Assembly (NCBI GenBank): GCA_032718475.1
Contig: JAUCBJ010008616.1
Location: 1-44,698 of the forward strand
DNA length: 44,698 nucleotides
Direction: 5' to 3'
DNA from: Nemertoderma westbladi
Taxonomy: Eukaryota; Animalia; Xenacoelomorpha
In this document: piece by piece, positions 1 through 41,999 of the stretch
Layout of the letters: each line of letters begins with the position of its first letter
How positions within the stretch are numbered: position 1 is the first letter of the stretch
Position numbers and translations under genes: made by a program
The notes under the pieces: generated by a model
Told to the model about the DNA's origin: nothing
Databases searched by the model: none
The model's input: only the letters and a program-made list of their open reading frames with translations

Positions 1-689
1 TGTAAAGATCTACCGTCTCTAGGACACTTTATTTGTGAATGATACAGCCCTTAGGTCCAGTCGGACAGATTAAGTGATTATTAAAACCAGTGTTATCAGG
101 GTCAGCATATATATGTATGTATCAACCTTATTCAGTTATTGCATACCGGTACCTCAATGTACTTATAACGCCTGATAACGGATTTACTGGGGAGTTAGAC
201 CTGGAGGGACTTTTTACTTCTAACACATATGTTCAACTGCATGTATCGTACATTTGTTGGTTGTTATCTGACTCGTTTGTAGCCCTTTATCTGCTTCTGG
301 GTTGTCTGGTTGTGCATCGTTGGTTCCTTTATGATTACCGGTGCCGATTATCGTTAAACCACCTCTATAAGAATAAAGTCAAATGGTTTCATATCTACCG
401 TTTTGCCTTCTTTGCCTGAATGTCTGAAGGGCAGAGTCGTCCGATGTCCTAACAAACAGCTTTTAGGCAACCATTAACATTTGTTATACATGCGGATCCA
501 GATAAGCGATCGTATAATATAGATGTATAGCTAAGAGAATAGAGGCATAAATTAGTTAAGATAACCGTGCTTATGAGTAGCCCATCAATCCAGGATTTCA
601 AGTTGCAGGTGATGTTCTAACCCCCTTTTTATAACACTAGATTATATATAAGTCTCGCCTTCTATAAATCTTGTGAACCGACTGCAACA
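1..689 (+). repeat. 5' LTR of element 1 (689 bp)
   Basis: Starts TGTAAAGATC and ends ACTGCAACA; AATAAA at 372-377. By eye it differs from the 3' LTR by one substitution and one 8-bp indel. Confidence 0.96.
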
Positions 690-701
690 TTAGAAGTAAA
701 A
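690..701 (+). promoter_or_regulatory. Primer-binding-site position of element 1, non-tRNA type, complementary to own LTR
   Basis: TTAGAAGTAAAA directly follows the LTR, lacks TGG, and is the reverse complement of LTR 212-223 (TTTTACTTCTAA). Confidence 0.7.
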
Positions 702-1835
702 GTCTAGCGTTGATCTGATTCAACCGGGCTATTACTGCATTTACTTTCAAATAAATAAAATTGATCACTGTAGCGGCCCTGGTGCCTCGCAGCCTGGCCC
801 ACAGTAAAATTTGTTATTTATCTTCAGATTCTAGCTGTCTATTGTCTAGAATTTCGGAAAGCGAAGCCTAGCCTGTGCTTGTCCGACCCCACAGAAAACC
901 AGACATTGCTGTAGCCAAAATAATTCCACAGACTTAATTCTGAAAATTTTCGTTAGTCTGTAAATAGGCCCAATCTGCTAATCCAATAATCACACTGCAC
1001 GGCTGCCTATGTTATAGCGGCCTATTCCTTTATTAATCAGTTGAATATTGGTTAGTAGTCTATCTATAGTGTAGGCTATTATTAATAAGGCTTACCTGCC
1101 TACTGTATTACCTTCCACCTTAGGCTGTCAGGCCCTATATATCATGTCTGCATGTAATTTCTAATAATATTACTGATATATATATATTATCTTATACATT
1201 CTGTTTGGATTTATAGATTTATTGCAGTGGTTTGTTTGTAATATCTAGCCTACTGTGCTACTGGTTGGTTGGTACCAATGGTATATTTTAATTTACCTGT
1301 AGTTTATTAACGGACTGGATTGTGATATAAATATATATTTGCTGGTAGGCCGACGTCGGGTATAGTAGTAGGCCTATAGATTATTATATAGTATGTACCA
1401 GATACCACAAGGCTTACTTGGATTTGACTAATATTACCGGTAAATTTAATTCGATATATTAAAAACTATACTGGTACCGGTAAGAAAAATATATAATTAT
1501 TTTGTAGAGTATAATTATTGACAGCACTGTATACATTAGGCCTACCTATACCGGTACGGATATATTTGTATATGGTTCTACTAGTACCGGTCTCGTACAA
1601 TTTCCACTATTCGGATATTACAATCTTTTTCAATTTTCTCTTTTACTAGGCTAATGAGTTAAAATCAGTCTTTATACGCCTGTACAGTACTAGGAATAAC
1701 ATACCGGTATCAAATGTAACTGTAAATACTTATGCACTATATAGATTACGACTAGGTCTGTAGGTTACGCTACACATATACCGGTACATATACAGTAAGT
1801 TTGTATAAAAGGATAAATTACCCTACAGTACTATA

Positions 1836-4800
1836 ATGAGTAGACCTATTCTAACAAAAGAGTTTCACTCCTCGGGTTCAGATGATTTAGGAGAATTTAA
1901 TGAAACTGTTATACAACAACAACTGGCATTGTCAGATTCTTCACAAATGAATGTCGAACGTTCAGTGATACAGCCACTAAGTGGTGCAAGAGCAAGTGGA
2001 CATGGGGAAGAAGAAGCGCAACCTTTAGAACTTCCCAGGTTTCCTAATCTATCTCTCGATGAAATGAGAGGATTTAATTCCCAAACATATATTGATAAGT
2101 TACCTATAACTCTTCCAGACGATCGTGCATATCAGAGATTCACTAAAGCTTGTGAAACATTGTATATACATTCAATTGATCCTGGTATGTCAGTGGCAGA
2201 TTTAGGCCGCAGCTTAGGTGGATATGCATCTGGAGTGACACGGTTTTTACGTTCATATGAAGCTAAGCTTCAACCTGATACGCTCCGAAGTATACAAGAT
2301 GATGAGTTGTTTGAATGGTACATGGACATTGAACATAAATTTTTTAAATTTAAGGAGATTGCGTATTGCATTCGACTCGTATCTCAATGTTTTGGGTATG
2401 TGCAGTTAGCTGAAAGAGCAAAGGCCCATTCCGAATTTTATTTTCGATGGGTGCAAAGATTATCTAAAGTGATTGCCCCAGTTGCGGGTGATGCTGGTAT
2501 GCGTCTCTTAACTGAACCGCCACCATCTGGAGGTGGATTGAGTATAATCAGTAGGTCTACCAATGGGAAGCAAGTGGAACTAGATCGCAGGGAAAATTAT
2601 CTTTTACAATCACAAGCCAGATATACTAGTCACAAGGAAAGAGTCAGCAATTATTTTGATAATACCATTCGAAATACTGAAGAGATGGATAAAGCCAACA
2701 ACAAACAACGCAGAATGAAGAGATTAATAGAAGAAGAAAAGAGACAAAACAAATTGGAGGCTTTAGAAGCAGAAAGACAAGAGCAAGAAGCGCTAGAGTG
2801 TCAACGCCAGAAAATGGAAGAATTGAAAAGCAAACGTGAGCAATATCTGGAAGTTTGCATTGATAAGGAATCCGAAATGCAGTCTATGTTAGGAAATATT
2901 ATTGAAGAGAAAAGGAAGGAGTCCCAGTCCCCCTCTAAAATATTTTCCACACTCGATGACAGGGTTGCGGCATTAGCACCTCCTTCATTTGGTAGCCTAT
3001 TCAATCCTACAGCCCCTGCGATTCAACCTTATAATGAATCGTTAAAGCGGTATCTAACACAAGAGGATGAAGAGGCAGACCCAATTTCAATGTCAGATAT
3101 TGAATATGAGATGACAGATGACAAATTTCCCTCATTACCAGATCATGGTCCGCTGACTTCAACCCTTATTGAGCCTTCCCATACAAAAATACAACAATTG
3201 AAATCTTTAGTAACATCTACAAGTAGCAAGAATTCTGATTTTAAGTCTTTGGCTTTAACCAGGGGAACACCAACTCCAGTACATCAACATTATATGGACC
3301 CGAAACCTAGAATTCCAGGGCCAGCATTATGTAGGCCTAATTTGGTTCCACCACAGATGACTGATATAGGTCACAGCGATCAACAGTGCCTTGGTTTCGT
3401 GTCCATGACAACTACATATCCAAATACATCATCCAGTATTATTACTACGTGTGTTTCACTATTGCCTGATACTAGGTCTACACCCTTGTCAACTTCAGTT
3501 AATCCAGTTAGATCGTTGACTACAGTGAATACAAGTCTCCATCCTTCCTCAATGGTTAGTAGTTATATTGGGTATAATAACTACAACACATCTAGATATC
3601 TACCATATGTTTCAGGTTTTATTCATCCTTTAACTGGAACCCCAGTGCGAGGTTATCAAGGTAATATTGCAACGACTACATTATCAAGCAGGATTATACC
3701 ATTGCCAGTACCGGTAAATGCAAAGCACCCATCTATGCCATTAGTGCAGCATCCCCAACTTTATCATAATACTGTGCCATGTTCTAATCAACTACCATAT
3801 CATTTGCCCAGTACACAGTCCCAATATACAAACCCAGAATCAAACATACATCACCAGTCACCAATTTTAAGTCAACTGGAGAGGGACTTGCTTCATGCGA
3901 ATAAAGCTAATAAGCATTTACAAGAGCAAAATAAATTACTAGCCAATCAAAATGCATGCCTACAAGATAATACATCTCAACTTCAAGACGTACTCTCTAT
4001 GCAGAAACATCAATATCATTATTCGAGGACCCCATTAATCTCTAAAACCTTGTATGATCCTTATACCAGTACATCTATTCAATCACAGACTTTGCCACCA
4101 CTGCCATCGGATACCATTACACCAGATGAATTAAAAAATTGTGTTAAGAGTGCTATTGATCGCAACACTTTGGAAATAAATAGAACATTGGATGATAGGA
4201 TTGAAGAATCATTGGCTAGATATCATGATCGCATCAATCTCCCAGGAGGAACTGCCTCTGGTCATAAACAGATACCCGGTTTGTTAAATATGTCACGATC
4301 TAGGTCAGCAAATGATGACTCTGATCTCGAAAGAACATTTGTCAAAGTGATGTCACGTATGGCCACAAATCAGACTTATCAATCAATGCCAAAGAGAGAT
4401 GCAATCAAATTTTCAGGATCATCGAATGACTGGATCCCTTTCAAACATTCATTCTTGTCTGATGTTGAATCATTGGTTATGTCACAGAGGGAAAAATTAT
4501 CTTTCCTTATAAATGCTTTAGATGGTTCACCAAAACGTCTTGTTGAAAAGTTTGTTGGTATTGATGATGGATTTGATCAAGCATGGGAAGAGCTGAAGGA
4601 TAGATATGGTAGAGATCAAACTGTGGTGCAATCATTACTTGATGGTTTAATGGAACTTCCACCATTGAAAAATTCTTATCAGACAATCGAATTCTCCGAT
4701 GAATTCACTAGAGCTTATACACAACTCGAACGTCTTGGGGAAGAGCAAGAGCTAGATAGTACGAAAGTCCTTAGGGATCTAGCAAAAAAGTTAGACAATG

Positions 4801-5273
4801 CAACACGAAGGAGATGGGCTAAGCGGAGCTTGGAGATTGAAGAAGATCCCCATAGTAATGGAAAGGTATTAGGAAAGGACTTTAAAGATTTTCTGAAACG
4901 GGAGGTAAAGGTTCTCATAAGAGATAAACTTGATGATGATAAGAAGAGAGACCCTAACAAAGATGAGAAATTGAGGGATGTGAAAAGTTGGGCAAGAGCG
5001 AATGTTGCTAAATCGTCTTCACCCATTTCAAGTGAAGACGATGATGGTGAGACAGTCATGGTTACTAAATCAAAGATTTCAAGGAATAAAACTAATTTTC
5101 CAAAGAAACAGATTAATAATGTGCATGTAAATAATGCAAAGGAAAATAAAGGTATAAGTAGTGGTGTGCTGACATTTTCTAAGGGTACTGGTGAGCTGAA
5201 ATGTGTACATTGCGGGGGGACACATACACTATATAAATGTGACAAATATTTAAAAATGTCATTAGAGCGATGA
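1836..5273 (+). CDS. gag: BEL/Pao gag with long N-terminal extension, ending at a premature TGA inside the zinc-knuckle cluster
   Basis: 1145-aa ORF. The KFSGSSNDWIPFKHSF...EKLSFLINALDG...AWEELKDRYG block is Pao-gag (DUF1759-like); CVHCGGTHTLYKC knuckle. The same frame continues past TGA 5271-5273 into CFNCLSDKHTRLHC and CRECGFAHHTTLH. Confidence 0.92.
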   Translation: MSRPILTKEFHSSGSDDLGEFNETVIQQQLALSDSSQMNVERSVIQPLSGARASGHGEEEAQPLELPRFPNLSLDEMRGFNSQTYIDKLPITLPDDRAYQRFTKACETLYIHSIDPGMSVADLGRSLGGYASGVTRFLRSYEAKLQPDTLRSIQDDELFEWYMDIEHKFFKFKEIAYCIRLVSQCFGYVQLAERAKAHSEFYFRWVQRLSKVIAPVAGDAGMRLLTEPPPSGGGLSIISRSTNGKQVELDRRENYLLQSQARYTSHKERVSNYFDNTIRNTEEMDKANNKQRRMKRLIEEEKRQNKLEALEAERQEQEALECQRQKMEELKSKREQYLEVCIDKESEMQSMLGNIIEEKRKESQSPSKIFSTLDDRVAALAPPSFGSLFNPTAPAIQPYNESLKRYLTQEDEEADPISMSDIEYEMTDDKFPSLPDHGPLTSTLIEPSHTKIQQLKSLVTSTSSKNSDFKSLALTRGTPTPVHQHYMDPKPRIPGPALCRPNLVPPQMTDIGHSDQQCLGFVSMTTTYPNTSSSIITTCVSLLPDTRSTPLSTSVNPVRSLTTVNTSLHPSSMVSSYIGYNNYNTSRYLPYVSGFIHPLTGTPVRGYQGNIATTTLSSRIIPLPVPVNAKHPSMPLVQHPQLYHNTVPCSNQLPYHLPSTQSQYTNPESNIHHQSPILSQLERDLLHANKANKHLQEQNKLLANQNACLQDNTSQLQDVLSMQKHQYHYSRTPLISKTLYDPYTSTSIQSQTLPPLPSDTITPDELKNCVKSAIDRNTLEINRTLDDRIEESLARYHDRINLPGGTASGHKQIPGLLNMSRSRSANDDSDLERTFVKVMSRMATNQTYQSMPKRDAIKFSGSSNDWIPFKHSFLSDVESLVMSQREKLSFLINALDGSPKRLVEKFVGIDDGFDQAWEELKDRYGRDQTVVQSLLDGLMELPPLKNSYQTIEFSDEFTRAYTQLERLGEEQELDSTKVLRDLAKKLDNATRRRWAKRSLEIEEDPHSNGKVLGKDFKDFLKREVKVLIRDKLDDDKKRDPNKDEKLRDVKSWARANVAKSSSPISSEDDDGETVMVTKSKISRNKTNFPKKQINNVHVNNAKENKGISSGVLTFSKGTGELKCVHCGGTHTLYKCDKYLKMSLER

Positions 5274-7831
5274 AGGGAGCTATGCAAAGAGCTTAGTTTG
5301 TGTTTCAATTGCCTATCAGATAAACATACTCGTCTACATTGTAGCAATAAGGGAAGGTGCAGAGAATGTGGCTTTGCCCACCATACTACACTTCATAAAT
5401 TGAGTCTTACTCAACGGGACAAGGATGATATTGCGTCTCATCACATAGGAACTGATACAGATTCAGATGCTGCAACTGATCATCTGGCAGATGAAGAGTT
5501 TTGCGACCTTGCTGTGATTGAACAACCTATAACCATTGGAGATGATGCCACTGTATGTAAGATTCAAAAGGGTAAAGCATCTATCAAGGAGTTCCCTATA
5601 ATTACCTTGAAGGTTGCTGGGGATATAGGTATGGCGACGATACATGCTTTGATAGACTCTGGAAGCTCGTCATCTTTTCTTGATTCATCTGTATTTAATC
5701 AAATTTTCTCTACAAAGAAGTCGAATAAATTAAATTTAACAGTTGTGACTTGGAAAAAGAATATGGATGTTGCTATTGCTAAAGGTAATCTTAGCGCATT
5801 GTGTCCAAATGATAACACAAGAGAAGCTAAGAATGTAAAGTTGATTAGTATGTTTGATCTGAGTTCATCTTTAGGTTATCCTTATGAATGGAGCAAAGAT
5901 GAATTTGTGAAAAGGAATCAAATCCCTATACCTCAATCAAATGGTAAACCAATTGAAATGCTTATAGGTCAAAATTGTCCAGAAGTGTTTCGTCACAGAG
6001 AAACTATACCTTCGAACCTGCAGCAATCGTATCAATTTTCAATTCCATTCGCAGCTCGCACTGATCTGGGATGGTTCTGCTCTGGTCCATCCGAGAGAAC
6101 GATTGCTGAACGAGAGTCCGAAACGATAAACTTTACAGACATAGCGAATGAATCTACATGCCATTGTTATGTTGAATCAGCTTTCCATGAACTTAAGGAC
6201 TTACTAGTTACTCCAATTTACAATAAAGACCCTCTGATACAAATAAAATGTATGTTGAATCAGACAAGTACTATAAAGGATGAAGACAATATTGAAGTGG
6301 AAAGAAATGATTGTAGAATGAATAGAATTAACAATTTAGAATCTGACTTTATATTGGAACAGAAGGTTCAAGCTTGGCTTGAAATGGATGCCTTTTTACC
6401 ATACGAAGTTGAGCCGGGGTTGTCAGTTGAGGAACAACGTGCCATTGATATTCAACAAAAAACTTGTAAACTTCTCCCGGATGGCCATTATGAGATCGAA
6501 CTTTTATGGCGAGATGCTAAACCTGAGCTTATTAACAACGAACCTTTAGCGCGTAAATGTGCTCTAACAATGAGAAAACGGCTTTTGCGTAACCCAGAAG
6601 TCCTCGAGATGTATAATACACAAATGCGGAAATATATTGATCAAGGATATGCTGATAGAGTTCCCCAAGAAAGTTTAGAATTTGGGCCGCGATCTTATTT
6701 TATGCCTCATCATTACGTAACTCATGCAAGTAAGCCAGGGCGAGTGAGGGTTGTTAATAATTGTGCTGCATTATATCAAGGTAAATCCCTCAACACAGAA
6801 TTAATGCCAGGTCCTAACTTATTGAGAAATTTATTTGGAATTTTATTTAGATTTCGTCAGTTTATGATTGCATTTACTTCAGATATTGAGGCGATGTTCT
6901 TGCAAGTAAGAACCACTAAGGTCGACAGTGACAGTTTAAGATATTATTGGTGGCCTGATAATTCCCTGGCGGGAGAACCAGTACAGTTTTGGATGCTTTG
7001 TCAAGCATTCGGAATCATATGTGCTCCATCAAACTCCAATTATGCTCTAAGGGTTACAGCGGATGACAATGCCCATAAATTTCCTCCGACAGTGATTGAA
7101 ACCATAAAAAAGGACATCTATATGGATGATTGCATTAAATCCACAACGACATTACCATTAGCCATGATCAATGCCCATGGAGTGCAAGATTGCCTTAAGC
7201 TTGGAGGTTTCAAATTAATCAAATTTGCAAGTAATAGTCGTGAACTTCTGGAGACATTTCCTCCTGAAGAACGAGCTCATCCTAACGTAGATCTTGACTC
7301 TGACCCATTGGTGATGCTTAAGATACTTGGTTTGAGATGGGACCCCACCATGGATCAATTTTTCTTTGATGTTAAATACCCTACTTCAGAAATAGAAGTA
7401 CTAACCAAACGTATATGTTTGTCACGTCTTGCGGGTATCTTTGACCCACTTGGTTTTCTTAATCCAACGATATTATTAGCGAAGATCTTAATCAAACGTA
7501 TGTGGAATATGGATCTTGATTGGGATGATGCTATACCAACCGAACTGTCCACAACATGGCATCAGTGGGAGCTAGGTCTCCAACAGATCAATGATTTGCG
7601 AATAGATAGGCCATATTTCGAAGATCTTCTTCAGGATCAAGATCTTGAGCTTCATACCTTTTCGGATGCCTGTGGCGAAGGCATGGGAGCGGTATCATAT
7701 TTACGATTAGAGCGAGATGGTGGTTTTCAAGTCAAAATGGAATTTCGTTCCAGGACCAATAAATCCCGCTGATCTGGCATGCCGGGGAGCCTCTGCTGAT
7801 GAACTATGCAAAGCCAATACGTGGTGGATAG
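5274..7831 (+). pseudogene. pol: Polyprotein continuation: knuckles 2-3, aspartic protease, reverse transcriptase, internally deleted RNase H
   Basis: Protease ALIDSGSSSSF; RT motifs SDIEAMFLQV and YMDD; TKRICLSRLAGIFDPLG; RNase H start LHTFSDAC. At ~7730 the reading jumps (+1 frame) to the RNase H C-terminus KWNFVPGPINPADLACRG...WWI. Confidence 0.93.
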
Positions 7832-10285
7832 TAGGGTGGTCCTTATTTCAATGTAAAATTTAAAAGTTGTGGAAATTCTCCTCTGACCCCCCCAAGTCCT
7901 TTCTTCTGATAAAAAAACACCTTGAGTAAAGTTTGAACACAAATGATATATATTTAGAGGTAGCTCAAACACCCTGAAGTTGAGCGTTTGGACACCATTT
8001 GATCGCGCGCGAAGAATATAATGGAGTTTGCTGATATTAAGGCTTCTGTTGGTCGTACAGAGTTAATTTTAGGCTTATTTGAACCGCAATCATCGATTTA
8101 GTGGGTGTAGATAGCTTCAAAACAAGTGCTAAGCTAGTAGTTCTTGAGATATCACACAAAAGCTTAAACCCGGCACAACTCATCAATCGATCATTCAATT
8201 GATTACGCCTAGGAGATATTGAAATATTGGCATTAACATTTTGTAGGTCTACCTCCCTGCATCTTATTTCAGTTAATCTCGATGTTAGCATTGTCTAACC
8301 ATTCAAAGCTATGTTTAGTAAAAAAAAAAATTCATCACAACCCCATGGGAAATGCTTGCACAAGCATCACTAATTTGTGTCTAAGCTCCATTTGCTACAA
8401 TATCAATAATTTACCACAAAACTTAACTTTTGGTTAATTATATCTAGGAACTGTTTGTTTAATTTGATTTGGACTGATTTTAAGGTGCAGAATCCAAAAA
8501 TCTCATCTGATTTGAATTTTAAAATGATATAGTGCATGATATACAACAATACCATACTGTACTTCAAAGCATATTAAAAGGATTGATAGATACAGAGATA
8601 TGTGCATCCAGCGACCATAAGAGTACTATATGGGAAGAAGCTTTGAACATATGCATTATACATAATTAGACAGTGCTGATTCCAAATCTGATTTCAGATT
8701 TGCCCTACCCCATCAAGTTTTCTCACAATTGCCAATTTGAATTCAAAAAACTTATCGCAAACGACTATGATGAGTGATGTAGATTCAAAAGAGAATCAAA
8801 TATGCTCAAAATCAATCTAAATCATTGAAAGGAGCTTTCTTTATATGAATTATATATAATTAAAACAATGTTGATTCTAAATCTGCTTTCATATTTGCCA
8901 TAGCATATCAAGTTATTTTCAAAATTACCAATTTAAGTTCAAATTACTTATCGCGAACAATTGTAAGGAGAGAAGTTGATTCAAAAAGAATCAAATATGC
9001 TCCAAATCAATATAAAGCATGAAAAAGAGCTTTGTTAATTTGAGTTATATATTAAACAATGCAATCTATATGGTGAATCTACTATCAGATTTACCATAGC
9101 ATATGTTGTAGATTGATTTGGGGGTGTATTTTATTATTATTGAATCTACTTTTACTCATAATAATTGTTTGCGATAAGTAATTTGAACTTAAATTGGCAA
9201 ATGTAAAAAAAACTTGATATCCTATGGCAGTATGGCAAATATTGAAGCAGATTTGGAATCAGCATCGTTTAAAAATATATAATTCATATAAACAAAGCTC
9301 CATTCAATGTTTTGGATTGATTTTGGGCATATTTGATTCTCATTTGAATCTACGCCACTCATCACAGTCATTTGCAATAAGTTTTTGAACTCAAAGTGGC
9401 AATTGTGAAAAAACTTGATGTGGTAGGGCAAATCTGAAATCAGATGTGGAATCAGCATTGCCTAATTATGTATAATACATATGTGCAAAGCTTCTTCCCA
9501 TATATTAGTTCTCTTTTGGTCACTGGATGCACATATCTCTACATCTATCAATCCTTATCTTAAAATGCTTTGAAGTACAGTATAGTATTCAGGTATTGTT
9601 GTATATCATTTTAAAATACAAATCAAATGCGATTTTGGGTTCTGCACTTAAAATCAGTCAAAATCAAATTAAACGAACAGTTCATAGATATAATTAACCA
9701 AAAGTTAAGTTTTGTGGCCAATTATTGATATCGTACCAAATGGCACTAATGCACAAATTAGTGATGCTTGTGCAAGCATTTCCCATGGGGTTGTGATGAA
9801 TTTTTTTTTCCTAAACATAGCTTTGAATGGTTATACAATGCTAAAATCGAGATTAACTGAAATAAGATGCAGGGAGGTAGACCTACAAAATGTTAATGCC
9901 AATATTTCAATATGTCCTTGGCGTAATCAATTGAATGATCGATTGATGAGTTGTGCCAGGCTTAAGCTTTTGTGTGATATCTCAAGAACTACTAGCTTAG
10001 CATTTGTTTTGAAGGTATCTACACCCACTAAATCGATGACTGCGGTTCAAATAAGCCTAAAATTAACTCTGTACGACCAATAGAACCCTTATATCAGCAA
10101 ACTCCATTATATTCTTCGCGCGCGATCAATCGGTGACCAGACACTCAACTTCAGTGTGTTTGAGCTACCTCTAATATTTGATGTACATGCTTAAAATTTC
10201 GCATGTCGTATTTTTTGACGAAGTGGAAACATTTGAGGGGGTCAGAGATGATAAATTCCAACCTTTCAAAATAAGGACCACCCTA
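7832..10285. mobile_element. Non-autonomous hAT-type DNA transposon with ~1.1-kb foldback arms, nested in element 1
   Basis: 17-bp TIR TAGGGTGGTCCTTATTT / AAATAAGGACCACCCTA; perfect 8-bp TSD GTGGATAG at 7824-7831 and 10286-10293. Removing it restores WWIGPEFLSRGKNHWP in frame. No transposase ORF. Confidence 0.92.
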
Positions 10286-10293
10286 GTGGATAG

Positions 10294-12168
10294 GTCCTGA
10301 ATTTTTATCTCGAGGGAAAAACCATTGGCCAGATCCATTGCCAGACTATAACCTACCTGCTGATGCAGAACTCGTGAAATGGAAAAATCGTCCTATGCGC
10401 TCTAAATTACTCGAGTACCAACCCGTCGGGAATCCAAATGATGCAAGGGAATTTAATATAACTGTTCAATATAATGATCAACTAGTATGTAACAACTTCA
10501 GTGGATATGTGGTAGATTGTCTGGAAAATGATCCAGAGGAAATAAAGCCACATGAGTGTAATTTCCCTGATATAACAGGTGGAGTTAGTGGCAAATATGA
10601 GCAGATGGTAGCCCGGACTAATTCAGCGCGGGCTTTAGCCAAACGTTTGGCAATACTCAAGCGCTTTTGTCATTTCTATCTGTGGTGTCGATTGAATTCA
10701 GGTAAATCTATTCCAAAACATTTCGGTGGTCCAATTTCACTCAATGAATTACATGCTACGCATCATCAAATAATCCGCTTATCACAAAAGGTCACTGATG
10801 TTAACCTTTATACAAAGCGACAACATGGCCAGACAATTAATAGTGAGCCTTTCCAAACCATAATGAGAGATGGACTTTTACGAATTAAGAGTAGGCTAAC
10901 ATTTGCACCTACTAGTGATGAGATGAAATACCCAATCTTGGTGCGAGATCATAGATTACAAGAACAAATGATTTGGGATACCCATATAGATTTATGTCAT
11001 GCTGGGCGTGACCATATCTTAAGTTATCTTAGAACGCAATATTATCTGATACATCCTTGGAAAACTATGAAGAATGTACTACAACAATGTTTGACATGCA
11101 AGAGATATAATGCCCCCTTAATGAAACAACAGATGTCTGACCTACCTTTAACTCGACTAGCTTCCTTTAAACCCGCTTTTTACAATAGTGGTATTGACAT
11201 GTTTGGCCCGATTGATGTGATGAGAGCTAGAACAATTGTCAAACGATGGGGCCTTATAATAACTTGTCTTACTACACGAGCAATCTGGTTGGATATTATG
11301 TTTACTGCAAACATGACTTCATTTACTCTTGCCCTACGCCGGTTTATTGCACATAGAGGAACACCAAAGAGTATTACCTCTGACAATGGTGGGAACTTCG
11401 TGGCAACAAGTAATGATATCAAGTTAAGCATCAAAGACTGGAATGAGGACATCATAAAGAAAGAACTTATGGATTACCATATCGAGTGGCTTGAATGGCA
11501 TTTCACACCGCCTCATGCGCCTTGGTACGGTGGTACTTATGAGCGTCTTATCAAGAGTGTAAAATTAGCCCTTAATAAAACACTACCTATACCTAGGACA
11601 TATCTTAATGATGAAGCTATCAGGACCTTCATGGCAGAAATTGAGCTAGTGTTAAACTCTCGACCTTTAACGAAAATGTCGGCATCACCTGAGTGCATTG
11701 AGGCTCTTACTCCTGCCCATTTTTTGCATCACAAACCTGGAATGATGTTGCCAATATCAACTCTGGAAGACTGTGATTTGTACTCTCAAAAAATGTGGAA
11801 GGTTCTTCAGCTAATGACTAACACATTCTGGAACATTTGGTTACTCTATTATCTTCCAAGTCAAACCCTACGTACCAAGTGGTTTGAGAAGACTGACAAC
11901 TTACACATTGGAGATATAGTACTTCTTCATGATGAGATGAGACCACGCAAATCGTGGTTAATAGGACGCATAACAAACAACGTACAATAGTGATGATGGA
12001 TTGATTCGGAATGTTTCATTAATCACAAAGACTGGCAAGAAATTAGATCGACCAATACAGCGCTTATGTCTCCTTGAACAAGATAGTGAACGTATTGGTT
12101 CGTATGGTAAATGGCCAGTGAATCATAATGATAGTTCTGAATCTGACCTCGAATTCCTCAAGAATTAG
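10294..12168 (+). pseudogene. pol: RNase H tail plus integrase of element 1, with a frameshift near 11975
   Basis: HHCC motif (HIDLCHAG...CLTC) and DDE motifs GIDMFGP, SDNGGNF, GTYERLIKS. After the ORF stop at 11990 another frame continues DDGLIRNVSLITKTGKKLDRPIQRLCLLE...KN* to 12168. Confidence 0.93.
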
Positions 12169-13635: not shown

Positions 13636-13644
13636 TGGGAGCGG
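13636..13644 (+). promoter_or_regulatory. Polypurine-tract position of element 1
   Basis: TGGGAGCGG directly before the 3' LTR; the same 9-mer precedes the 3' LTR of element 2. Confidence 0.8.
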
Positions 13645-14341
13645 TGTAAAGATCTACCGTCTCTAGGACACTTTATTTGTGAATGATACAGCCCTTAGGT
13701 CCAGTCGGACAGATTAAGTGATTATTAAAACCAGTGTTATCAGGGTCAGCATATATATGTATGTATCAACCTTATTCAGTTATTGCATACCGGTACCTCA
13801 ATGTACTTATAACGCCTGATAACGGATTTACTGGGGAGTTAGACCTGGAGGGACTTTTTACTTCTAACACATATGTTCAACTGCATGTATCGTACATTTG
13901 TTGATTGTTATCTGACTCGTTTGTAGCCCTTTATCTGCTTCTGGGTTGTCTGGTTGTGCATCGTTGGTTCCTTTATGATTACCGGTGCCGATTATCGTTA
14001 AACCACCTCTATAAGAATAAAGTCAAATGGTTTCATATCTACCGTTTTGCCTTCTTTGCCTGAATGTCTGAAGGGCAGAGTCGTCCGATGTCCTAACAAA
14101 CAGCTTTTAGGCAACCATTAACATTTGTTATACATGCGGATCCAGATAAGCGATCGTATAATATAGATGTATATTTGTATATCTAAGAGAATAGAGGCAT
14201 AAATTAGTTAAGATAACCGTGCTTATGAGTAGCCCATCAATCCAGGATTTCAAGTTGCAGGTGATGTTCTAACCCCCTTTTTATAACACTAGATTATATA
14301 TAAGTCTCGCCTTCTATAAATCTTGTGAACCGACTGCAACA
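13645..14341 (+). repeat. 3' LTR of element 1 (697 bp)
   Basis: Direct repeat of 1-689 with TG...CA ends. Confidence 0.96.
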
Positions 14342-24198: not shown

Positions 24199-25422
24199 TG
24201 TACGCGCTTTTGAAGACCTTTAGCAGTTTAACCTGCCAAAATTTATATGTCTTTTGGTTTATAAATAGACTTTAGAAATTGACAAATATTTAATACCAAT
24301 AAACACAACATTAGCAGAAGCCAGCCTAGTGCGCGTCCATTCACCCGCTGGATATACCCGGGAGACTGGATTCTGAGGGCTTAGATTGTTATTGCAGTGT
24401 AAGCTTACTGTATTATTCGATTGATCGTTAATAAATAATTTCTGACTAATATTATTCACTTTCGGGAAATATTAACAGTTCCTTTAGGACGTGGCGCTCT
24501 ATCTAGGTAAACAGAGATATGACTTATACTAAACACAACGGTAAGTCGGTAAGGCTTATGATTCACGTATGAGGCGCATTCTTTAGGAAATGCTTAGTTA
24601 TCAGCCACAATCATGCACACTACCGGTAACGCACAATACTGCACACTAATCTGCCGACCGTCAATGAATTTTATCATACATAAAGAGAACAGCAATTGAC
24701 TCATGTAGTGCCTATCAAATAGCATTAAACTCACTACAAACCACGATAATATAAGTCGCAATCGCTATATGTAACCTGTCTCTCTAACCTGTAGTGTATC
24801 AAGAAAATTGGGAAATTTGGGTTCTTTATAGATGTTCTCCAAATAATATTCAACCAACTGATACAAAATAATAACAACAGTAAAAGCATTAAGACGGTAG
24901 GTTAAGATATGATATGACAATGTATGTGCCGATTGAGCCGATAACAGTTATACGTTCTATAATCTAAGCCTACTAATGTTTCTTCTAAAGTCTGAAACGA
25001 ATTGACTCTAGAGCCGGTGTTCCTGGCCTAGATAGAAACAACACAACAGTAACAAAAACACTCTCTGACTCTAACACCGTTGCAGGTATCTTTTTACACA
25101 GAGAGGAATAGCTCTCATTGGCAGAACACCAGATTCCACAGGTTCCACGAATATCTAAATGCCGAACTATCAGGATTTTTGCAGCCCTTGGCCAACACAC
25201 GAAATGAGTCACTCCGCTCGGTTGCCCTGGTTGCATACTCTGCTGCTATAGCTCTGGTTGGCCGATAGAACATAGCAAAGAGCCCCTCGTATAACAAATC
25301 AGCCAATCAGCCGGTCGCTTTGCATCATTCGAGTTAGAGAGCTTTTTAGAGTATTCCAGCGCCTGGGGGGGAACTGGATTGCAAAGCAAAAGGGCCAGTT
25401 ACATCCCACAAAAGCTTTTACA
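24199..25422 (-). repeat. 3' LTR of element 2 (1224 bp)
   Basis: Direct repeat of 36319-37542 at offset 12120. Confidence 0.97.
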
Positions 25423-25431
25423 CCGCTCCCA
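25423..25431 (-). promoter_or_regulatory. Polypurine-tract position of element 2
   Basis: The minus strand reads TGGGAGCGG then TGTAAA, identical to the junction in element 1. Confidence 0.8.
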
Positions 25432-29994: not shown

Positions 29995-32900
29995 TCACCT
30001 CTTTAGGATCTCCGCCGTGGTAAGATGAGGAGGCCAATCTTCTTCTTCTTTACTTAAGAAGTCGGATCCACCTAACCAGCCTGGAGTATCTATCAGTTCT
30101 TGAGGAGTTGCTCCTCTGGAAGCGATGTCGGCTGGATTAATCGTCCCAAGGCAATGTCTCCATTGATCTACATTGGAGTTAATATCGTCATTATCTGAGG
30201 AGTATGGTGTTCCTTCAGTTGGATCGTCCACATCACTGCTCTCCACTTCCCATTCCTTTACTTGGTATACCTGTTGTTGAGGTAATCTCTCTTTGAGAGT
30301 TCTACGGGAAGGGCCAGTGAAGTACCAACCTACTCTAGTTCTTACCGCATAGGTTTGTAGTGGCTGCGGTTGAGCAGGCCGTTTCTCCAATGTCTCGAGC
30401 GCCTCATGCGCGTTTTGGCCGATGAGTATTTGCACTCCAGGATAATCTGTCTGGAATCGAGGTATCTTAAGCTGTTGGATGCTCTCATCCTCGTCCCAAT
30501 TATAAAGGTCTGCTTGGGTAGTAGCGAAGTTCTTTATAGCCACCATTTTTACCGACCTTATACCTTGTGCTCCTAATTTATCCTGGGGGGTGGACAACAC
30601 ACCTACATAGTAGTCTGCCGTTAGGGTAGATTTCCAAACCTGCATAATTCCTGACATATTCAATTTAGTCCGGAATTTGGGTTGTCCAGCAAAAATATCT
30701 TCGGCTAGTTCTTGATCGATGAATGTTCCTGTGCTGCCGGAGTCAAGGAGGGCGTTCACTATGTAACTTTTGTTAGGACCATGAACTCTTACCTGCACTA
30801 CAGGAAATTCTCTGATTCCTACGTTGGAAGTTGGAGGTTTCCAAGATGGTTGTCTGTCAAAGGTAGTTGGGGGGAACTCATTGTCGGTGTCCTTTTCATA
30901 CGTAAGTGCTCGATACACTGCGGTATTTATTAGGTAACAGGATTCGTTGGCGTCGGAGAATTCGTCCGTATAGAATCCTTCCATCTCAGACTCTTGATCA
31001 GTGTCATTTACATCACTGAATTGGACATGTAGTTCGGGCTCACTTACCTGACTCGGGTTGTCTCGTTCGAACTCACTGTGTAACAAGATGTGATGTTTCA
31101 CGCCACACTTTGCACACTTTACGTCGGAGTAACAGGTTCGCCGTTGGTGTCCTGATCTGAGGCAATTATAGCATAACCGCTTATTCCACAGGACTGCACG
31201 TCTGTCTACAAGGGATTTCTTTAGAAATTCAGCACACGCACTCAAACAGTGGGGCCCGTCGCACAGCGCACATTTTGGTTTGATGTTACTCACCTTACCT
31301 TGGGTAACGTTATGCACTCTCGTTCTTTCTTCGGGCTTTCTTCCGTAAATTCTCTTAGGAGACGTAGGAGGAGTTGTTGTTACCTGTTCTCTCCTGTCAC
31401 TGGTTCGAGACTTGTATTTACTTACGTCTTTATAGGTCTTGTTGTCATAGTAAGATTTTGCTGTGTCTTTCCCACTGTCCTCTTCTTGAGAAGCTTGGCT
31501 TTCGCCGTCGTCAGTATAACACACTGGTATTATCCTTCGCCTAGAAACGGGTTTCTCACTTACCTTATTTTCCGATGTTTTCTCTCTGGACTGCTTTATG
31601 AGTTGTAATTTTACTTCACTATCTAAGAAGGACATGAGATCAGCCATGGTAGGGCTTCGTCGTTGCTGCTCATTCATATACAACACTTTCTTGTCCCAAC
31701 GTGTACATACTCCACCCTTAGGTAAAGTAGAGACTACGGCTCCAATAACCATGGAACTCTGATATTCATGAGACTTACCTAACCAGTCCAATTGTCTACA
31801 GATCTCCTGAATCTCATCGGAAAACTCTATAATCCCGCTACTAAGGAAGTTTCGGGGGGCTACTAATTTTGCATACAAATACTTAGCTATGTTATCCTTG
31901 TTACCATACCTGATGTTTAATGTATCCCAAACTTGTCTTAATCCTTCTGGATGTCCAATAAACTTTAACGCCATTAACTTGGGAGGTCCTTCCAAACACT
32001 TGATGAGGAATCTAAGCTTCTCTCCGTTAGATAGTACAGAGTTCTGTATGCTATCTTTGTAATATTCATTGAAAGGTAACCATTTCATCTCATCTCCATT
32101 GAATTTGACGATCTCTCCCACCTTAACCGCTTGGCGGGCTTCTGTTCTAGCCATCTGACGCGTAAAGCTTTCTTGGGCCATCGTGTTATTTAATATCGAA
32201 TTATCGGTATATAAATTTCTCGGATCATTATCAGGTCTATAGGGAATATCATTAACAACAGGTTTATAATCACCCTTAATAGGGTTTGCTATAGGAGTTT
32301 CTACTTCACTAGCAGTATAGATGCGTGTAGGCTCCACACCTTGCGCATGTAATACTTCAGACCTAACAGGTTGACACCATGTTACAGGGGGTATTGGTAT
32401 CGCTTTTTGTATATTGACTAATTTGTCGCGTTCTAGAGCGATACTTTGCTGCACTTCTTGCAATTCGGCCCTACCTTCCCTTACTGTTCCCTTAAGTTGG
32501 TGGACAGTCTCCTGCATCTGTCCGAGCAGGAGATTCATCCCCCGCCGTCCCTCCTCTACCCACTCGACCGCCGAAGCGGGAGTTGCCAACATTGTAGAGG
32601 GCTGACGCGGGATGACGGGAGACAAATCTTTGATTTCTCTCTCAGCTTCCAGGACAGGGATATTCTCATGGACTGTTCTACCGGGTACAGGCAGTGTAGT
32701 ACTGTGTAGAGGGAATTTAGAGTTAAGCTCTGGAAGTACAGGGGTCTCTAGCACAGGAGTGGCTTTGGGAACGACAGGCCTAATTATTTCAGGCTCATCA
32801 ACTATGGTAGGGAGTCTTTTGACCTTAATAATTTGGTCTGTGGGTTCTGTACTACCTAAGTCTGTGCTAGCTAGTTGTCTTCTGACAGCTGGGGGCAAAT

Positions 32901-33966
32901 CAGGCAGTTTATGACGGTGAGATGTTTTTCTACGCCTGCTTAGACGAGATCTATTTCCTCCGCCTTCCGGATCGGTGGTCTCGCCTTCTTCCGATGATGT
33001 GTATTCTTGGCGTTTGGGAGTAGATCGACTCATCATCTGCATTTGACTAGCAGTTAACTGTTTATTTATGTTGTCTTGCGTCTCTTGCAGATTTTCCAAC
33101 TCCAGTTGGGTAGTCTGCTCAGACGCTCTCCGTTCTGCTTCTGCCACTGCCTTTGCCGCCTTTCTTTCCGCTTCTGCTTCTGCCGCCGCTGCCTTTCTTT
33201 CTGCTTCTGCTTCTGCCGCCGCTGCCTTTCTTTCTACTTCTGCTTCTGCCATGGCCGCCGCCTTTTGTTCCTCTATCCGTCTTTTCTTTACTTCTTCTTC
33301 CTGGACTCTAGCGAGGCGAAGTTTTTCATCAAATTTAGCTTGGTTTGCAGCTAACATTTCCGCATCGATTGCGTCCAACACAAGCTTGGTTCCTTCACTA
33401 TTAGGGCGAAGTCCAGACAGTCGTCTCCTCAACTCTTCGTCTCCTATGAATCGCTGATAGTCTGACAGATAGATGTCAATGGCGTCTCTAGTTCGCGGCT
33501 TCTCTGCTGCTGTTAATTCGCTTTCCACTTCGCTTTCCACCTCGCTTTCCACTTGAGAAGAAGTGGCGTCGGTTGATTCTTCATAGGTTGGCCGCTCATC
33601 ATAAACCGTATCCGCCATCTTCGCTCCGCGTTCGGGCGTCTGCTCAACAGTATCCGAACTACTGGAGCTATCGGGCCGCTGAGAACTAGGTTCTTGGCTA
33701 GGAGGTTGCTGCTGTTTTATAGCTTCTTCTTGATCCCGCTTGACTTGGGCCCGAGTACCTATGGCAGACCAACGGCGCTTCACTAACTTCGCAAATTGCG
33801 AAATCTTTTCTACCAACCTAGGTTCTGACACAACCACCGCAGGGGTTGCCCTTCTTACAGTATGAGGGGTTTCAGACCTCGGTCTGGGATTCTCTACACT
33901 TTGGTCTGAGAAACAGGCTGTTGTTTCTAGGAGACTATCTGACAGAGTTTGCCTTGTGTCAGCCAT
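29995..33966 (-). CDS. gag: BEL/Pao gag-protease ORF fused in frame to an RNase H C-terminal fragment
   Basis: Open 1323 aa. KFNGDEMKWLPF...EKLRFLIKCLEG gag block; knuckles CALCDGPHCLSAC, CYNCLRSGHQRRTC, CAKCGVKHHILLH; protease ALLDSGSTGTFI; ends with WRHCLGTINPADIASRG...WLGGSDFL...WP. No RT motifs. Confidence 0.94.
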   Translation of the reverse strand: MADTRQTLSDSLLETTACFSDQSVENPRPRSETPHTVRRATPAVVVSEPRLVEKISQFAKLVKRRWSAIGTRAQVKRDQEEAIKQQQPPSQEPSSQRPDSSSSSDTVEQTPERGAKMADTVYDERPTYEESTDATSSQVESEVESEVESELTAAEKPRTRDAIDIYLSDYQRFIGDEELRRRLSGLRPNSEGTKLVLDAIDAEMLAANQAKFDEKLRLARVQEEEVKKRRIEEQKAAAMAEAEVERKAAAAEAEAERKAAAAEAEAERKAAKAVAEAERRASEQTTQLELENLQETQDNINKQLTASQMQMMSRSTPKRQEYTSSEEGETTDPEGGGNRSRLSRRRKTSHRHKLPDLPPAVRRQLASTDLGSTEPTDQIIKVKRLPTIVDEPEIIRPVVPKATPVLETPVLPELNSKFPLHSTTLPVPGRTVHENIPVLEAEREIKDLSPVIPRQPSTMLATPASAVEWVEEGRRGMNLLLGQMQETVHQLKGTVREGRAELQEVQQSIALERDKLVNIQKAIPIPPVTWCQPVRSEVLHAQGVEPTRIYTASEVETPIANPIKGDYKPVVNDIPYRPDNDPRNLYTDNSILNNTMAQESFTRQMARTEARQAVKVGEIVKFNGDEMKWLPFNEYYKDSIQNSVLSNGEKLRFLIKCLEGPPKLMALKFIGHPEGLRQVWDTLNIRYGNKDNIAKYLYAKLVAPRNFLSSGIIEFSDEIQEICRQLDWLGKSHEYQSSMVIGAVVSTLPKGGVCTRWDKKVLYMNEQQRRSPTMADLMSFLDSEVKLQLIKQSREKTSENKVSEKPVSRRRIIPVCYTDDGESQASQEEDSGKDTAKSYYDNKTYKDVSKYKSRTSDRREQVTTTPPTSPKRIYGRKPEERTRVHNVTQGKVSNIKPKCALCDGPHCLSACAEFLKKSLVDRRAVLWNKRLCYNCLRSGHQRRTCYSDVKCAKCGVKHHILLHSEFERDNPSQVSEPELHVQFSDVNDTDQESEMEGFYTDEFSDANESCYLINTAVYRALTYEKDTDNEFPPTTFDRQPSWKPPTSNVGIREFPVVQVRVHGPNKSYIVNALLDSGSTGTFIDQELAEDIFAGQPKFRTKLNMSGIMQVWKSTLTADYYVGVLSTPQDKLGAQGIRSVKMVAIKNFATTQADLYNWDEDESIQQLKIPRFQTDYPGVQILIGQNAHEALETLEKRPAQPQPLQTYAVRTRVGWYFTGPSRRTLKERLPQQQVYQVKEWEVESSDVDDPTEGTPYSSDNDDINSNVDQWRHCLGTINPADIASRGATPQELIDTPGWLGGSDFLSKEEEDWPPHLTTAEILKR

Positions 33967-35315
33967 GTTTGATTGTACAGTTGAATGCCTACTGCTATAT
34001 TACAGTTAAAGCAAGTCTAGTAATTCAGTATCACTGTTAGCCTAGTAATTAATTACCGATACTGCTACTCAGTGTAGCGTAATATATATATAAGTATTAT
34101 TACAGACTAGATTTGTCACAGAGTACCGGTATATAAATTTAGCACAAATATATATAAATATATAATAGGCCTATCGTGAATACCGGTATACAGCTGACAC
34201 TTATAGTATATATAAGTATAATTATTACAGACTAGAATTAATTACAGAATACCGGTATGATTTCAGCCCAACTTTATAGAAATAAATATAATAAGCCTAT
34301 GGTAAATACCGGTATGTCAATTATTTTAGAATAATTGAATTTCTCAATATTTTAGGGTTACTTGGTTACTTTAACTTACTTTATTACCGTTATTTAAGCA
34401 GTAGTCCAACTGATATTGAGACCTAGTTGTTGTATGGCAGGCCTACTATTTATAAATCGTTTGAGTTGATTTATAATATATATATACCCGTTTAAAATGG
34501 GTCTTGTCAATATTTGAAATAAATGTTATTATTTCTGGGGAAGTCACTACACAGAAGCTGTGCGCTCTCAGTGAAGTGCTACTTATGGGACACTAAAACA
34601 GATAATTCTAATTTACCTAAGTTACTTAATACTACAAATTGCTTACGATACGGGTGAGATTAAATTTAAATCTCTAATTAAACACAACAAAATATTACGT
34701 ACGAAATTTTTTAGGGTAATTTTACAGGAAGTCTACAAACCAGCCTAACAAAGGGTTAGAATTCTGGTTATTACAACGAACAGGGTACTACGGTATTTGA
34801 AATAATAAGTAGTAGTAAATATATTGCACTGTCCAGATAGGAAAAATACCACCGCCTGACGACCTATAGCCGTATCGCTATAGGTCTACGTTATGTATCA
34901 CGGAGTGTTCCTACCTGGAAGTTAATTACCGCGGACTACCAGATCCAACATGCCTATTAACCACTTTACAACACAAATATACTGCCTACACACTAATTAC
35001 CTTCGGAAAGCACTGTACACTGAACCCTAAATTAGGTACAAGTACTGGTACAACAAATAATCAGTAGTTAAATATACTTGAACAGTTAAAAGAACCACGG
35101 CATCTGCTGGAGTGACCGGAGCACAAAGTCACCAGTCTTTACCTACGCCAAGCAGCCTGTGTAGTACCGGGGTTAATTTAACTATAACGGTATGTGTAAC
35201 AAGCACAATTACTGTAGGAATAAACTTGGGGACATGAATGTTGCGAATAATCGCATAAACTCTGAATAATAAATATTACGCTACCCGTACAGAATACTCA
35301 AACAAAATACAAACC

Positions 35316-35788: not shown

Positions 35789-36026
35789 TTCCTCCAAACC
35801 CAACAACAATCCGACAACAGTCCGGCCTACAGTTATCTGAGCAATCTGAGCAGACTTACACGTCTTCAGCTCAATATTAACTTACTAGGAAATAAAACTG
35901 ACAGAAATAAGTAAACTATACAAAAGAATGAGGGGTGATCAATCCCTATTCCCCTGGCAGCCTACAATATACAATAGATCACAATCGAAATAATACTAAT
36001 GTACTTGTACTGGAAGTACCGGTTAG

Positions 36027-36250
36027 GACAGTTGGGCCTACAGACCTACAGCAGTACCGATTCTGGCAGTTGGGCCTACGGACCTACAGCAGTACCGATT
36101 CTGGCAGTTGGGCCTACGGACCTACAGCAGTACCGATTCTGGCAGTTGGGCCTACGGACCTACAGCAGTACCGATTCTGGCAGTTGGGCCTACGGACCTA
36201 CAGCAGTACCGATTCTGGCAGTTGGGCCTACGGACCTACAGCAGTACCGG
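36027..36250. repeat. 38-bp minisatellite, 6 copies, in the element 2 leader
   Basis: GGCAGTTGGGCCTACGGACCTACAGCAGTACCGATTCT at 36065, 36103, 36141 and 36179, plus a variant copy at 36027 and a partial copy at 36217. Confidence 0.95.
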
Positions 36251-36307
36251 TTCAGGTTTACCGGTCGACCGGTACTTTCAACTTTATTGCTTACTGCAAT
36301 AAAGACA

Positions 36308-36318
36308 ATAACTGTTAT
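36308..36318 (-). promoter_or_regulatory. Primer-binding-site position of element 2, non-tRNA type, complementary to own LTR
   Basis: Minus-strand ATAACAGTTAT directly follows the 5' LTR and lacks TGG. Its complement ATAACTGTTAT lies on the same strand inside the LTR at 37071-37061. Confidence 0.65.
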
Positions 36319-37542
36319 TGTACGCGCTTTTGAAGACCTTTAGCAGTTTAACCTGCCAAAATTTATATGTCTTTTGGTTTATAAATAGACTTTAGAAATT
36401 GACAAATATTTAATACCAATAAACACAACATTAGCAGAAGCCAGCCTAGTGCGCGTCCATTCACCCGCTGGATATACCCGGGAGACTGGATTCTGAGGGC
36501 TTAGATTGTTATTGCAGTGTAAGCTTACTGTATTATTCGATTGATCGTTAATAAATAATTTCTGACTAATATTATTCACTTTCGGGAAATATTAACAGTT
36601 CCTTTAGGACGTGGCGCTCTATCTAGGTAAACAGAGATATGACTTATACTAAACACAACGGTAAGTCGGTAAGGCTTATGATTCACGTATGAGGCGCATT
36701 CTTTAGGAAATGCTTAGTTATCAGCCACAATCATGCACACTACCGGTAACGCACAATACTGCACACTAATCTGCCGACCGTCAATGAATTTTATCATACA
36801 TAAAGAGAACAGCAATTGACTCATGTAGTGCCTATCAAATAGCATTAAACTCACTACAAACCACGATAATATAAGTCGCAATCGCTATATGTAACCTGTC
36901 TCTCTAACCTGTAGTGTATCAAGAAAATTGGGAAATTTGGGTTCTTTATAGATGTTCTCCAAATAATATTCAACCAACTGATACAAAATAATAACAACAG
37001 TAAAAGCATTAAGACGGTAGGTTAAGATATGATATGACAATGTATGTGCCGATTGAGCCGATAACAGTTATACGTTCTATAATCTAAGCCTACTAATGTT
37101 TCTTCTAAAGTCTGAAACGAATTGACTCTAGAGCCGGTGTTCCTGGCCTAGATAGAAACAACACAACAGTAACAAGAACACTCTCTGACTCTAACACCGT
37201 TGCAGGTATCTTTTTACACAGAGAGGAATAGCTCTCATTGGCAGAACACCAGATTCCACAGGTTCCACGAATATCTAAATGCCGAACTATCAGGATTTTT
37301 GCAGCCCTTGGCCAACACACGAAATGAGTCACTCCGCTCGGTTGCCCTGGTTGCATACTCTGCTGCTATAGCTCTGGTTGGCCGATAGAACATAGCAAAG
37401 AGCCCCTCGTATAACAAATCAGCCAATCAGCCGGTCGCTTTGCATCATTCGAGTTAGAGAGCTTTTTAGAGTATTCCAGCGCCTGGGGGGGAACTGGATT
37501 GCAAAGCAAAAGGGCCAGTTACATCCCACAAAAGCTTTTACA
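36319..37542 (-). repeat. 5' LTR of element 2 (1224 bp)
   Basis: Direct repeat of 24199-25422; A/G difference at 25056/37176. Confidence 0.97.
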
Positions 37543-37629
37543 AATGTGTCACCTGTATCTACAGTACTGTACAACCACCAAACATCGAGGCCAGCCATAC
37601 AAGGTAAACATATATGACATGACATGACA

Positions 37630-41640: not shown

Positions 41641-41999
41641 AAAATAGGTAAGAGATTAAATATAGGTAAATACCCTTCCACGCTTGCATATAAGTATAAA
41701 ATCAAATACACAAGCTTATAAGTACACAATTACGCCATATCATAGTCTCTACATACTTCAACCTGCTGAATTGGTAATTTAAAACTTTCTACTTTTGGTC
41801 CGGATAGTGCATTTCAAGCATTGTTGCGCCACATTTAGGTCGAATTGTAGAAGAAAGTGAACAAAATGTGTCTATTGCATCGAACGAAAGGTTGTGTTTG
41901 TTCGATATGTTTCATCAAGCAAACAGCAAGTCGCCAGTCGAACTATTGCATCGAACCTGTTTCGTACCAGAACTAAAGAAGTGTAATATACAAGTTCCG

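Follow-up and report, generated by a model that had tools for sequence, protein, structure and literature searches.

Two BEL/Pao elements in the window

The window, by which we mean the whole 44,698-nt stretch of Nemertoderma westbladi DNA that was analysed, carries two LTR retrotransposons, element 1 on the plus strand and element 2 on the minus strand, together with several other repeats. The features of element 1 are as follows:

1..689, plus strand: 5' LTR; the window begins at its first base
212..223, plus strand: predicted self-primer, a contiguous 12-nt stretch (the duplex model gives 16 pairs and one bulge)
690..701, plus strand: predicted primer-binding site, directly abutting the LTR and lacking a TGG
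1809..11990, plus strand: gag-pol (DUF1759, Pao peptidase A17, integrase), interrupted by one stop at 5271-5273 and a fold-back insertion at 7950-10177
13645..14341, plus strand: 3' LTR, with a purine tract (13637-13644) ahead of it

The 2.2-kb fold-back element has long terminal inverted repeats (87.5% arm identity) and inner 195-bp repeats, and is inserted at an AT-rich site in the RNase H/integrase interval of the element 1 pol gene. Directly after element 1 lies a satellite (14584-20419) made of 87 copies of a 67-bp unit with 96% matches. The far end of the window (39694-44679) holds degraded LINE-like RT fragments and an inverted piece, with a LINE-like tandem duplication at 40168-41540 and 43186-44554 (95%).

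Element 2 is a non-autonomous BEL/Pao element that measures 13.3 kb from LTR to LTR:

36319..37542, minus strand: 5' LTR, 1224 nt, TGTA...TACA
24199..25422, minus strand: 3' LTR, 1224 nt, with the primer copy at 24951-24941
37543..37547 and 24194-24198, minus strand: target-site duplication ACATT, 5 bp, on both flanks
36015..36253, minus strand: 38-bp tandem repeat of the leader, 6.3 copies, right behind the primer site
29995..33999, minus strand: gag-protease ORF (DUF1759), 1334 aa
28584..29108, minus strand: ORF with a 28-aa remnant resembling the element 1 integrase (E 5e-4)
25423..25430, minus strand: purine tract GGGAGCGG, the same letters as in element 1

The two LTRs differ by a single mismatch, at 37176, and element 2 is therefore a young insertion. 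Its gag-protease ORF runs in frame into 50 aa that normally lie immediately ahead of the integrase; a deletion has removed RT and RNase H, and most of the integrase is gone as well. Tandem repeats of 288 bp (35261-35845) and 126 bp (34085-34315) accompany the 38-bp repeat in the 2.3-kb leader. Ahead of the 3' LTR are two more minus-strand ORFs, 25502-26317 (271 aa) and 26554-26967 (137 aa). A Pfam search with both returned no match and a protein search with the longer one found no homolog of similar length; they are possible accessory genes.

By their proteins both elements are BEL/Pao (Belpaoviridae). Pfam found DUF1759, Peptidase_A17, integrase H2C2, rve and DUF5641 in element 1 and DUF1759 in the Gag of both. 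They also have the TG...CA LTRs and purine tract of this superfamily, and a 5-bp target duplication surrounds element 2. No chromodomain was found by Pfam, and the Pao-type domains place the pair outside the Ty3/gypsy Tf1/sushi group. Among all loci fetched, element 1 is the closest relative of element 2 (bit score 202 versus 117 or less; 27.5% identity), and the two have their purine tract and LTR start in common. The LTRs of the two could not be aligned (best BLASTN E 0.29), which agrees with the dissimilar LTR bodies described in the initial annotation. To judge from these comparisons they are distant sisters and not fully independent, so the further proposal in that annotation, that element 2 is an independent replicate of element 1 and the pair an instance of natural covariation, could not be upheld; indeed, no compensatory change can be counted between LTRs that cannot be aligned. 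The best relatives of the element 1 RT are up to 42% identical, the named ones coming from corals, and in a quick tree (74 rows) element 1 forms a long branch at the margin of a coral/fish/oyster group, apart from insect elements. Because of this position, element 1 is likely to be related to the intron-bearing elements described below, if not tightly. Naming its clade as Sinbad/Sailor is a guess from host range.

The predicted primer-binding site of element 2 and its complement in the LTR

On the minus strand, the 11 nt that directly follow the 5' LTR of element 2 (36318-36308) read ATAACAGTTAT. The exact reverse complement of this word, ATAACTGTTAT, is present within both LTRs (37071-37061 and 24951-24941). 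The letters and coordinates of this pairing, noted earlier, were confirmed, as was the zero gap, with which the LTR ends and the ACATT duplications agree. The two predicted features are:

36308..36318, minus strand: predicted primer-binding site, directly abutting the LTR, lacking a TGG and exactly complementary to 37071-37061
37061..37071, minus strand: predicted self-primer at nt 472-482 of the 5' LTR, contiguous and without an intron

A TGG is absent within 5 nt of the LTR end in both window elements. When the element 2 LTR was dinucleotide-shuffled 5000 times, the 11-mer was present in 4 of the shuffles, and an 11-nt complement in the LTR was found for 6 of 10885 other interior positions of the element. 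Together these give a chance of 5e-4 to 8e-4 for the match, close to the hand estimate of about 1e-3 that had accompanied its discovery. When duplex energy was compared with that of 200 shuffles, p was 0.030 for a 12-nt segment and 0.19 for an 18-nt segment. The earlier caveat that the word is AT-rich and almost palindromic also stood: 10 of its 11 letters match as a direct copy too, and it recurs twice in the 67-bp satellite (17538 and 17673), a few variant units of which contain it by chance. For these reasons the 11-mer alone is modest evidence. The pairing in element 1, likewise without a gap, was verified as well, 690-701 being complementary to 212-223 over 12 nt, and was matched in 0 of 5000 shuffles and at 0 of 12943 other interior positions.

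The predicted duplex of element 2 is weak, at about -10.1 to -10.7 kcal/mol, with self-duplexes of the near-palindrome (-5.0 to -5.5 kcal/mol) reaching half that stability. The loop between primer and site would span 742 nt, versus 52-223 nt in the spliced relatives described below. In folded leaders of 788-808 nt the pairing probability was 0.00, and for element 1 it was 0.80 with one assumed start and 0.01 with another; long-range folds are unreliable. No TATA box was found about 30 nt upstream of 37071 and no AATAAA in the element 2 LTR. Among the aligned elements only L009 has a TATA box at a fixed distance, and the start site is therefore not pinned.

Other kinds of primer were also considered for element 2. 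ARAGORN found 0 tRNAs in the window, and a tRNA-like primer within the LTR was rejected, the best Rfam result being one sub-threshold match (E 0.43). An intron inside the element's own primer was rejected as well: the 10-nt match that it would create, at offset 1, needs a non-canonical GT..AG donor. No GTRAG donor lies near the primer site of either window element. Downstream of the primer, the LTR also contains the strong donor-like sites GTGAGT and GTAAGC, at 36854 and 36528 (minus strand). Their use in splicing would make the 742-nt loop shorter, at the price of an expected loss from progeny.

Copies of the element 2 family in host contigs

Host contigs from four runs were compared over 37020-37110. 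For the primer (37061-37071), zero substitutions at 2% or more were listed, versus 7 plus many indels for 37046-37058. Substitutions are just as absent from the 40 nt that lie upstream, and the primer itself is therefore not set apart by the read data. Contig depth climbs roughly tenfold at 37060, and loose ends cluster at 37052-37061. These features outline one more segment:

37060..37180, minus strand: block common to many genomic copies, comprising the primer and about 110 nt upstream (from summed contig depth and loose ends, suggestive only)

The shared block stops at the primer 3' end, 37060, and is followed by about 40 variable nt. Many copies thus seem to share the primer and the block upstream of it and to diverge right past the predicted cut. 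A variant from run X3 has 37 different letters, after which the window sequence resumes exactly at 36308.

The element 2 LTR family is very abundant in the host contigs and has subfamily-specific upstream LTR halves. For runs X1 and X3, summed contig depth over 36319-37542 lies between 1e4 and 2e6, a depth that is not a copy number, and the part at 37181-37424 lies about 10 to 50 times below the rest of the LTR. One contig from a run guessed to be RNA covers the primer site, which has no bearing on expression.

Complements to the LTR in related elements

For a test in sister families, 96 loci from public contigs were used. Metagenome contigs supplied 80 of them (58 clusters at 90% RT identity) and genome contigs the other 16 (L081-L096); three scans of viral contigs yielded no relatives. 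The loci include no tRNA-primed BEL/Pao element and so provide no within-family negative control. The 16 genome-contig loci are animal BEL/Pao elements on contigs filed under bacterial metagenome-assembled genomes, most likely by host contamination. In L071 and L072, which lie on one contig, a BEL/Pao element recurs exactly every 6138 bases, as either a circular form or an assembly artefact would do. L092 has a small second LTR element (1584-6303; 331-nt LTRs, 99.7%) nested on the opposite strand in its BEL/Pao leader; the self-complement of this small element is just 4 nt, and its primer site is presumably of the copia half-tRNA-Met type.

The first set consisted of 13 loci whose LTR end was fixed by divergence of the two copies, reduced to 12 when L024, a duplicate of L025, was dropped. 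Their RTs are 42-74% identical among themselves and 35-40% identical to that of element 1. With a contiguous complement of 10 nt as the measure, 11 of the 12 failed, L078 alone having one. Duplex energies compared with shuffled LTRs reached p<0.05 in 0/10 (12-nt) and 2/10 (18-nt) relatives. The partial matches in this set were located directly behind apparent splice acceptors. When any GT..AG pair in the LTR was allowed, a perfect complement of 10-15 nt across one junction was obtained in 11 of the 12. The best junction uses a GTRAG donor in 9 of these 11 (GTRAG makes up 24 of 652 GT sites), and cross-pairs within the set gave 10 nt in 6 of 176 and never more.

Because the intron idea was formed on these first 12 elements, fresh loci were needed. 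Eight loci with a known LTR start and an unknown LTR end were held out and scanned under limits set beforehand. Five were positive, four across a junction (11-15 nt) and one contiguously (13 nt); shuffles equalled the four junction matches in 1, 0, 0 and 0 of 40. The other three gave 15, 11 and 11 nt under widened limits (gap 5, LTR to 1200, intron to 500), each with 0/100 shuffles, and L032 was lost under the stricter acceptor of that scan. Five genome-contig loci with fixed or nearly fixed LTR ends comprised three junction matches of 11 nt, one contiguous match of 11 nt and L084, with 8 nt. Elsewhere among the genome contigs, L082 had an 11-nt match and L081, L083, L085, L091 and L095, when scanned, had no credible one. 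Twelve further loci were scanned as well: L021 has a contiguous 11-mer, and 10 were without a match, most for want of a whole 5' LTR. L050, one of these 10, gave no credible match, and this was not for want of a whole 5' LTR. An 11-nt junction match in L023 was seen by eye only, with an LTR end that is not ACA. Loci with too little flank were excluded from scoring, and 5 of the 16 genome-contig loci were not scanned.

In the final scoring, one rule was applied to 19 fixed-end elements, with two weak or non-canonical donors having been added to it after the first set was seen. A complement of 10-15 nt to the element's own primer site was present in 18 of the 19, the exception being L084 with its 8 nt. 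In 14 of these 18 it exists only across an LTR intron, mostly one with a canonical donor, and in 4, both window elements included, it is contiguous. When each related group was represented by one element, a pairing of 10 nt or more with the element's own LTR was present in 15 of 16, versus 1 of 240 cross-pairs. Across 7383 derangements the count never exceeded 1 of 16, and control stretches downstream matched in 6 of 800. The initial annotation had called for sister families to be compared against a null, and the comparison went in favor of its suggestion.

The pairing is always oriented with the 3' end aimed at the LTR, and the gap from the LTR end to the pairing is 0-5 nt across the relatives. 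The 11 nt and zero gap that had looked special at the outset are thus single values within a range of 10-15 nt and 0-5 nt. A TGG within 5 nt of the LTR is missing in 18 of the 19; the one that has it, L018 (offset 1), has a weak donor. Predicted primers finish in AC or AT in 15 of the 19, among them that of element 2 (AT). The pairing appears in the lowest-energy fold of 7/11 spliced leaders versus 1/11 or 0/11 unspliced ones. The evidence from element 2, modest by itself, is strengthened by these relatives.

Compensatory change and intron loss

Two groups of loci provide natural experiments. The LTRs of L086 and L090 are about 89% identical, and exon 1 ends in CAC in one and TAA in the other. 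The matching place in the two primer sites reads GTG and TTA, respectively, such that both changes are compensated across the junction. This is real covariation, of the kind that could not be counted in the window elements. The second case is L048, which is 90% identical to L042 along the element and has an unchanged primer site. Alignment of its LTR with that of L042 covers nt 28-214 of the latter and resumes at 382, so that exactly the predicted intron is missing. The alignment shows that the intron was precisely removed, leaving a contiguous primer like those of the window elements. L048 is the sole such case for 11 junctions sought in the 96 loci, and its contig may derive from DNA or RNA. 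In the quick tree, the contiguous forms L046, L078, L031 and L061 are scattered among intron-bearing elements, which fits repeated intron loss, with gain also possible. The window elements match the intron-less form of L048, L046, L078 and L087.

Comparison with known systems

In PMC7175516, the first 11 bases of Tf1 RNA are described as pairing with the primer site and RNase H as cutting between bases 11 and 12. The model of fold-back, cut and extension is also set out there and in PMC5341516. As in Tf1 and Tf2 (Schizosaccharomyces pombe, Ty3/gypsy), the window elements have no tRNA site, and about 11 nt after the 5' LTR are complementary to the LTR. Unlike Tf1/sushi elements they are BEL/Pao by Pfam and not chromoviruses. 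The lineage also differs from Tf1 in its pairing of 10-15 nt with gaps of 0-5 nt and in having a primer that is split by an intron in most relatives, while element 2, whose start site and cut are predictions, differs in being non-autonomous and in its 742-nt loop.

In PMC6317226 and PMC3601003, Tf1/sushi elements are described as self-priming, and Tcn1 and TAR are predicted to be so. The rule given in PMC6317226 asks for 10 or more complementary nt, the first of them 0-5 nt behind the LTR. It would call elements 1 and 2, as it does plant Tcn1 (Ty3/gypsy) and TAR (Ty1/copia; Houba, Osr-1), which belong, unlike the window elements, to other superfamilies and to plant hosts. Because it seeks contiguous matches, the rule in this form would miss 14 of the 18 positives reported here.

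Belpaoviridae (Semotivirus), as described by ICTV, have an 18-nt site to which host tRNA-Arg or tRNA-Gly binds; BEL/Pao is listed there as tRNA-primed, with a poorly understood replication (PMC8742986). The present elements resemble that description in the DUF1759 Gag, the Pao peptidase/RNase H region, the integrase in last place, TG...CA LTRs, purine tract and 5-bp duplication, and depart from it in the lack of a TGG within 5 nt of the LTR in 18 of 19. Element 2 resembles the LARD-type non-autonomous LTR elements, as defined in PMC4558846, in being large (13.3 kb) and recent, in lacking RT and integrase, and in keeping its LTRs, primer site and purine tract; unlike a LARD it retains a 1334-aa Gag-protease ORF. 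Primer and PBS terms are absent from the available text of three BEL/Pao surveys (PMC3118150, PMC554778, PMC6238403), and that of PMC7472051, PMC4558846 and PMC8220671 holds nothing on BEL/Pao self-priming. Our literature searches, which had subscription papers, supplements and Repbase reports outside their scope, returned no report of BEL/Pao self-priming or of a splice-built primer.

A probable self-primer and its alternatives

Tf1-like self-priming in a BEL/Pao lineage is the best reading of these comparisons, and element 2 is probably an intron-less form of that lineage. We put the probability that the element 2 pair is a working or inherited self-primer, used in place of a host tRNA, at about three in four. 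By analogy with Tf1, the RNA of element 2 would have its 5' end within the 5' LTR, at 37071 or farther upstream, and its 5' part would fold back onto 36318-36308. RNase H would then cut right past 37061, the last paired base, and the freed 3' end would prime minus-strand DNA from the LTR end. Because its RT, RNase H and most of its integrase are missing, element 2 would need a helper element of the same lineage to supply the enzymes. The two would have no need of an identical primer, since the element 2 site matches its own LTR and not that of element 1.

For the lineage as a whole, we consider it fairly probable that a wide group of animal BEL/Pao elements dropped the tRNA primer and has the spliceosome join a self-primer from two LTR exons. 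Splicing would then gate reverse transcription, and only the capped 5' copy would prime. The cap-proximal LTR intron would be spliced, so that the primer is built at the 5' end only, and the 3' LTR copy would usually stay unspliced, leaving progeny with the intron and each RNA with one primer. Where the 3' LTR copy is spliced too, progeny would have intron-less LTRs with a ready-made primer. The contiguous sites of elements 1 and 2 probably arose in this way and would be products of repeated, precise intron loss. The core of the original proposal, a Tf1-like self-primer in BEL/Pao elements that have no tRNA site, is supported; what it had missed is the LTR intron that splits the complement in most relatives.

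The comparison with sister families covered pairing and not priming, and a pairing that is real and selected might have some other job, such as leader structure for translation, packaging, dimer formation or splicing feedback, while another primer is used. The near-palindromic word of element 2 could indeed pair two RNAs, at -5.0 to -5.5 kcal/mol, but such self-duplexes are half as stable as the heteroduplex. Moreover, another job would have to account for a pairing that is always 10-15 nt long, 0-5 nt from the LTR end and directed with its 3' end toward the LTR, and no other primer is in view because 18 of the 19 elements lack a TGG there. We regard this alternative as unlikely. The match in element 2 could instead be due to chance or be a relic in a lineage that does self-prime, with the true primer located elsewhere or the element primed otherwise. 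A probability of about 1e-3 for a single element picked by a reader, a near-palindrome that occurs twice more in a nearby satellite, a fold model without the pairing, and the alternative 10-nt match that a non-canonical GT..AG pair can create at offset 1 in so long an LTR all lean this way. However, the match sits exactly where the lineage pattern predicts and ends in AT (AC or AT in 15/19), and sister element 1 has the same contiguous layout. In addition, the conserved block ends at 37060, the X3 variant rejoins at 36308, and the copy is young, with one LTR mismatch. On balance a coincidence or relic at this position seems quite improbable.

The primer might also act in trans, with a short LTR RNA (from a solo or 3' LTR, spliced if it has an intron) or a host tRNA fragment annealing to the site. 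The BEL element Cer7 encodes its own tRNA-like primer, a precedent that we count toward this possibility, and the 742-nt loop and the fold model disfavor easy folding in cis, while the LTR family is very abundant in host contigs. Against this, the window contains no tRNA, no RNA family passed the threshold when the LTR was searched, and the sites vary by family. Because they track each element's own LTR, a host tRNA cannot explain them. Priming in trans is accordingly judged very improbable, and a self-primer within the element's own RNA is preferred.

Implications for LTR retrotransposons

If the self-primer reading is true, self-priming members would exist in all three LTR superfamilies. It would also explain why annotation tools find no primer site here. 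As a practical matter, the self-primer rule offers a simple way to locate LTR ends, and predicts for each family the junction, the cut site and where the primer ends at its 3' side. A splice-assembled primer would constitute a new start for reverse transcription, a new point of host control and an escape from silencing by tRNA fragments, and the two elements in the window would matter as the intron-less end state of such a splice-built primer system.
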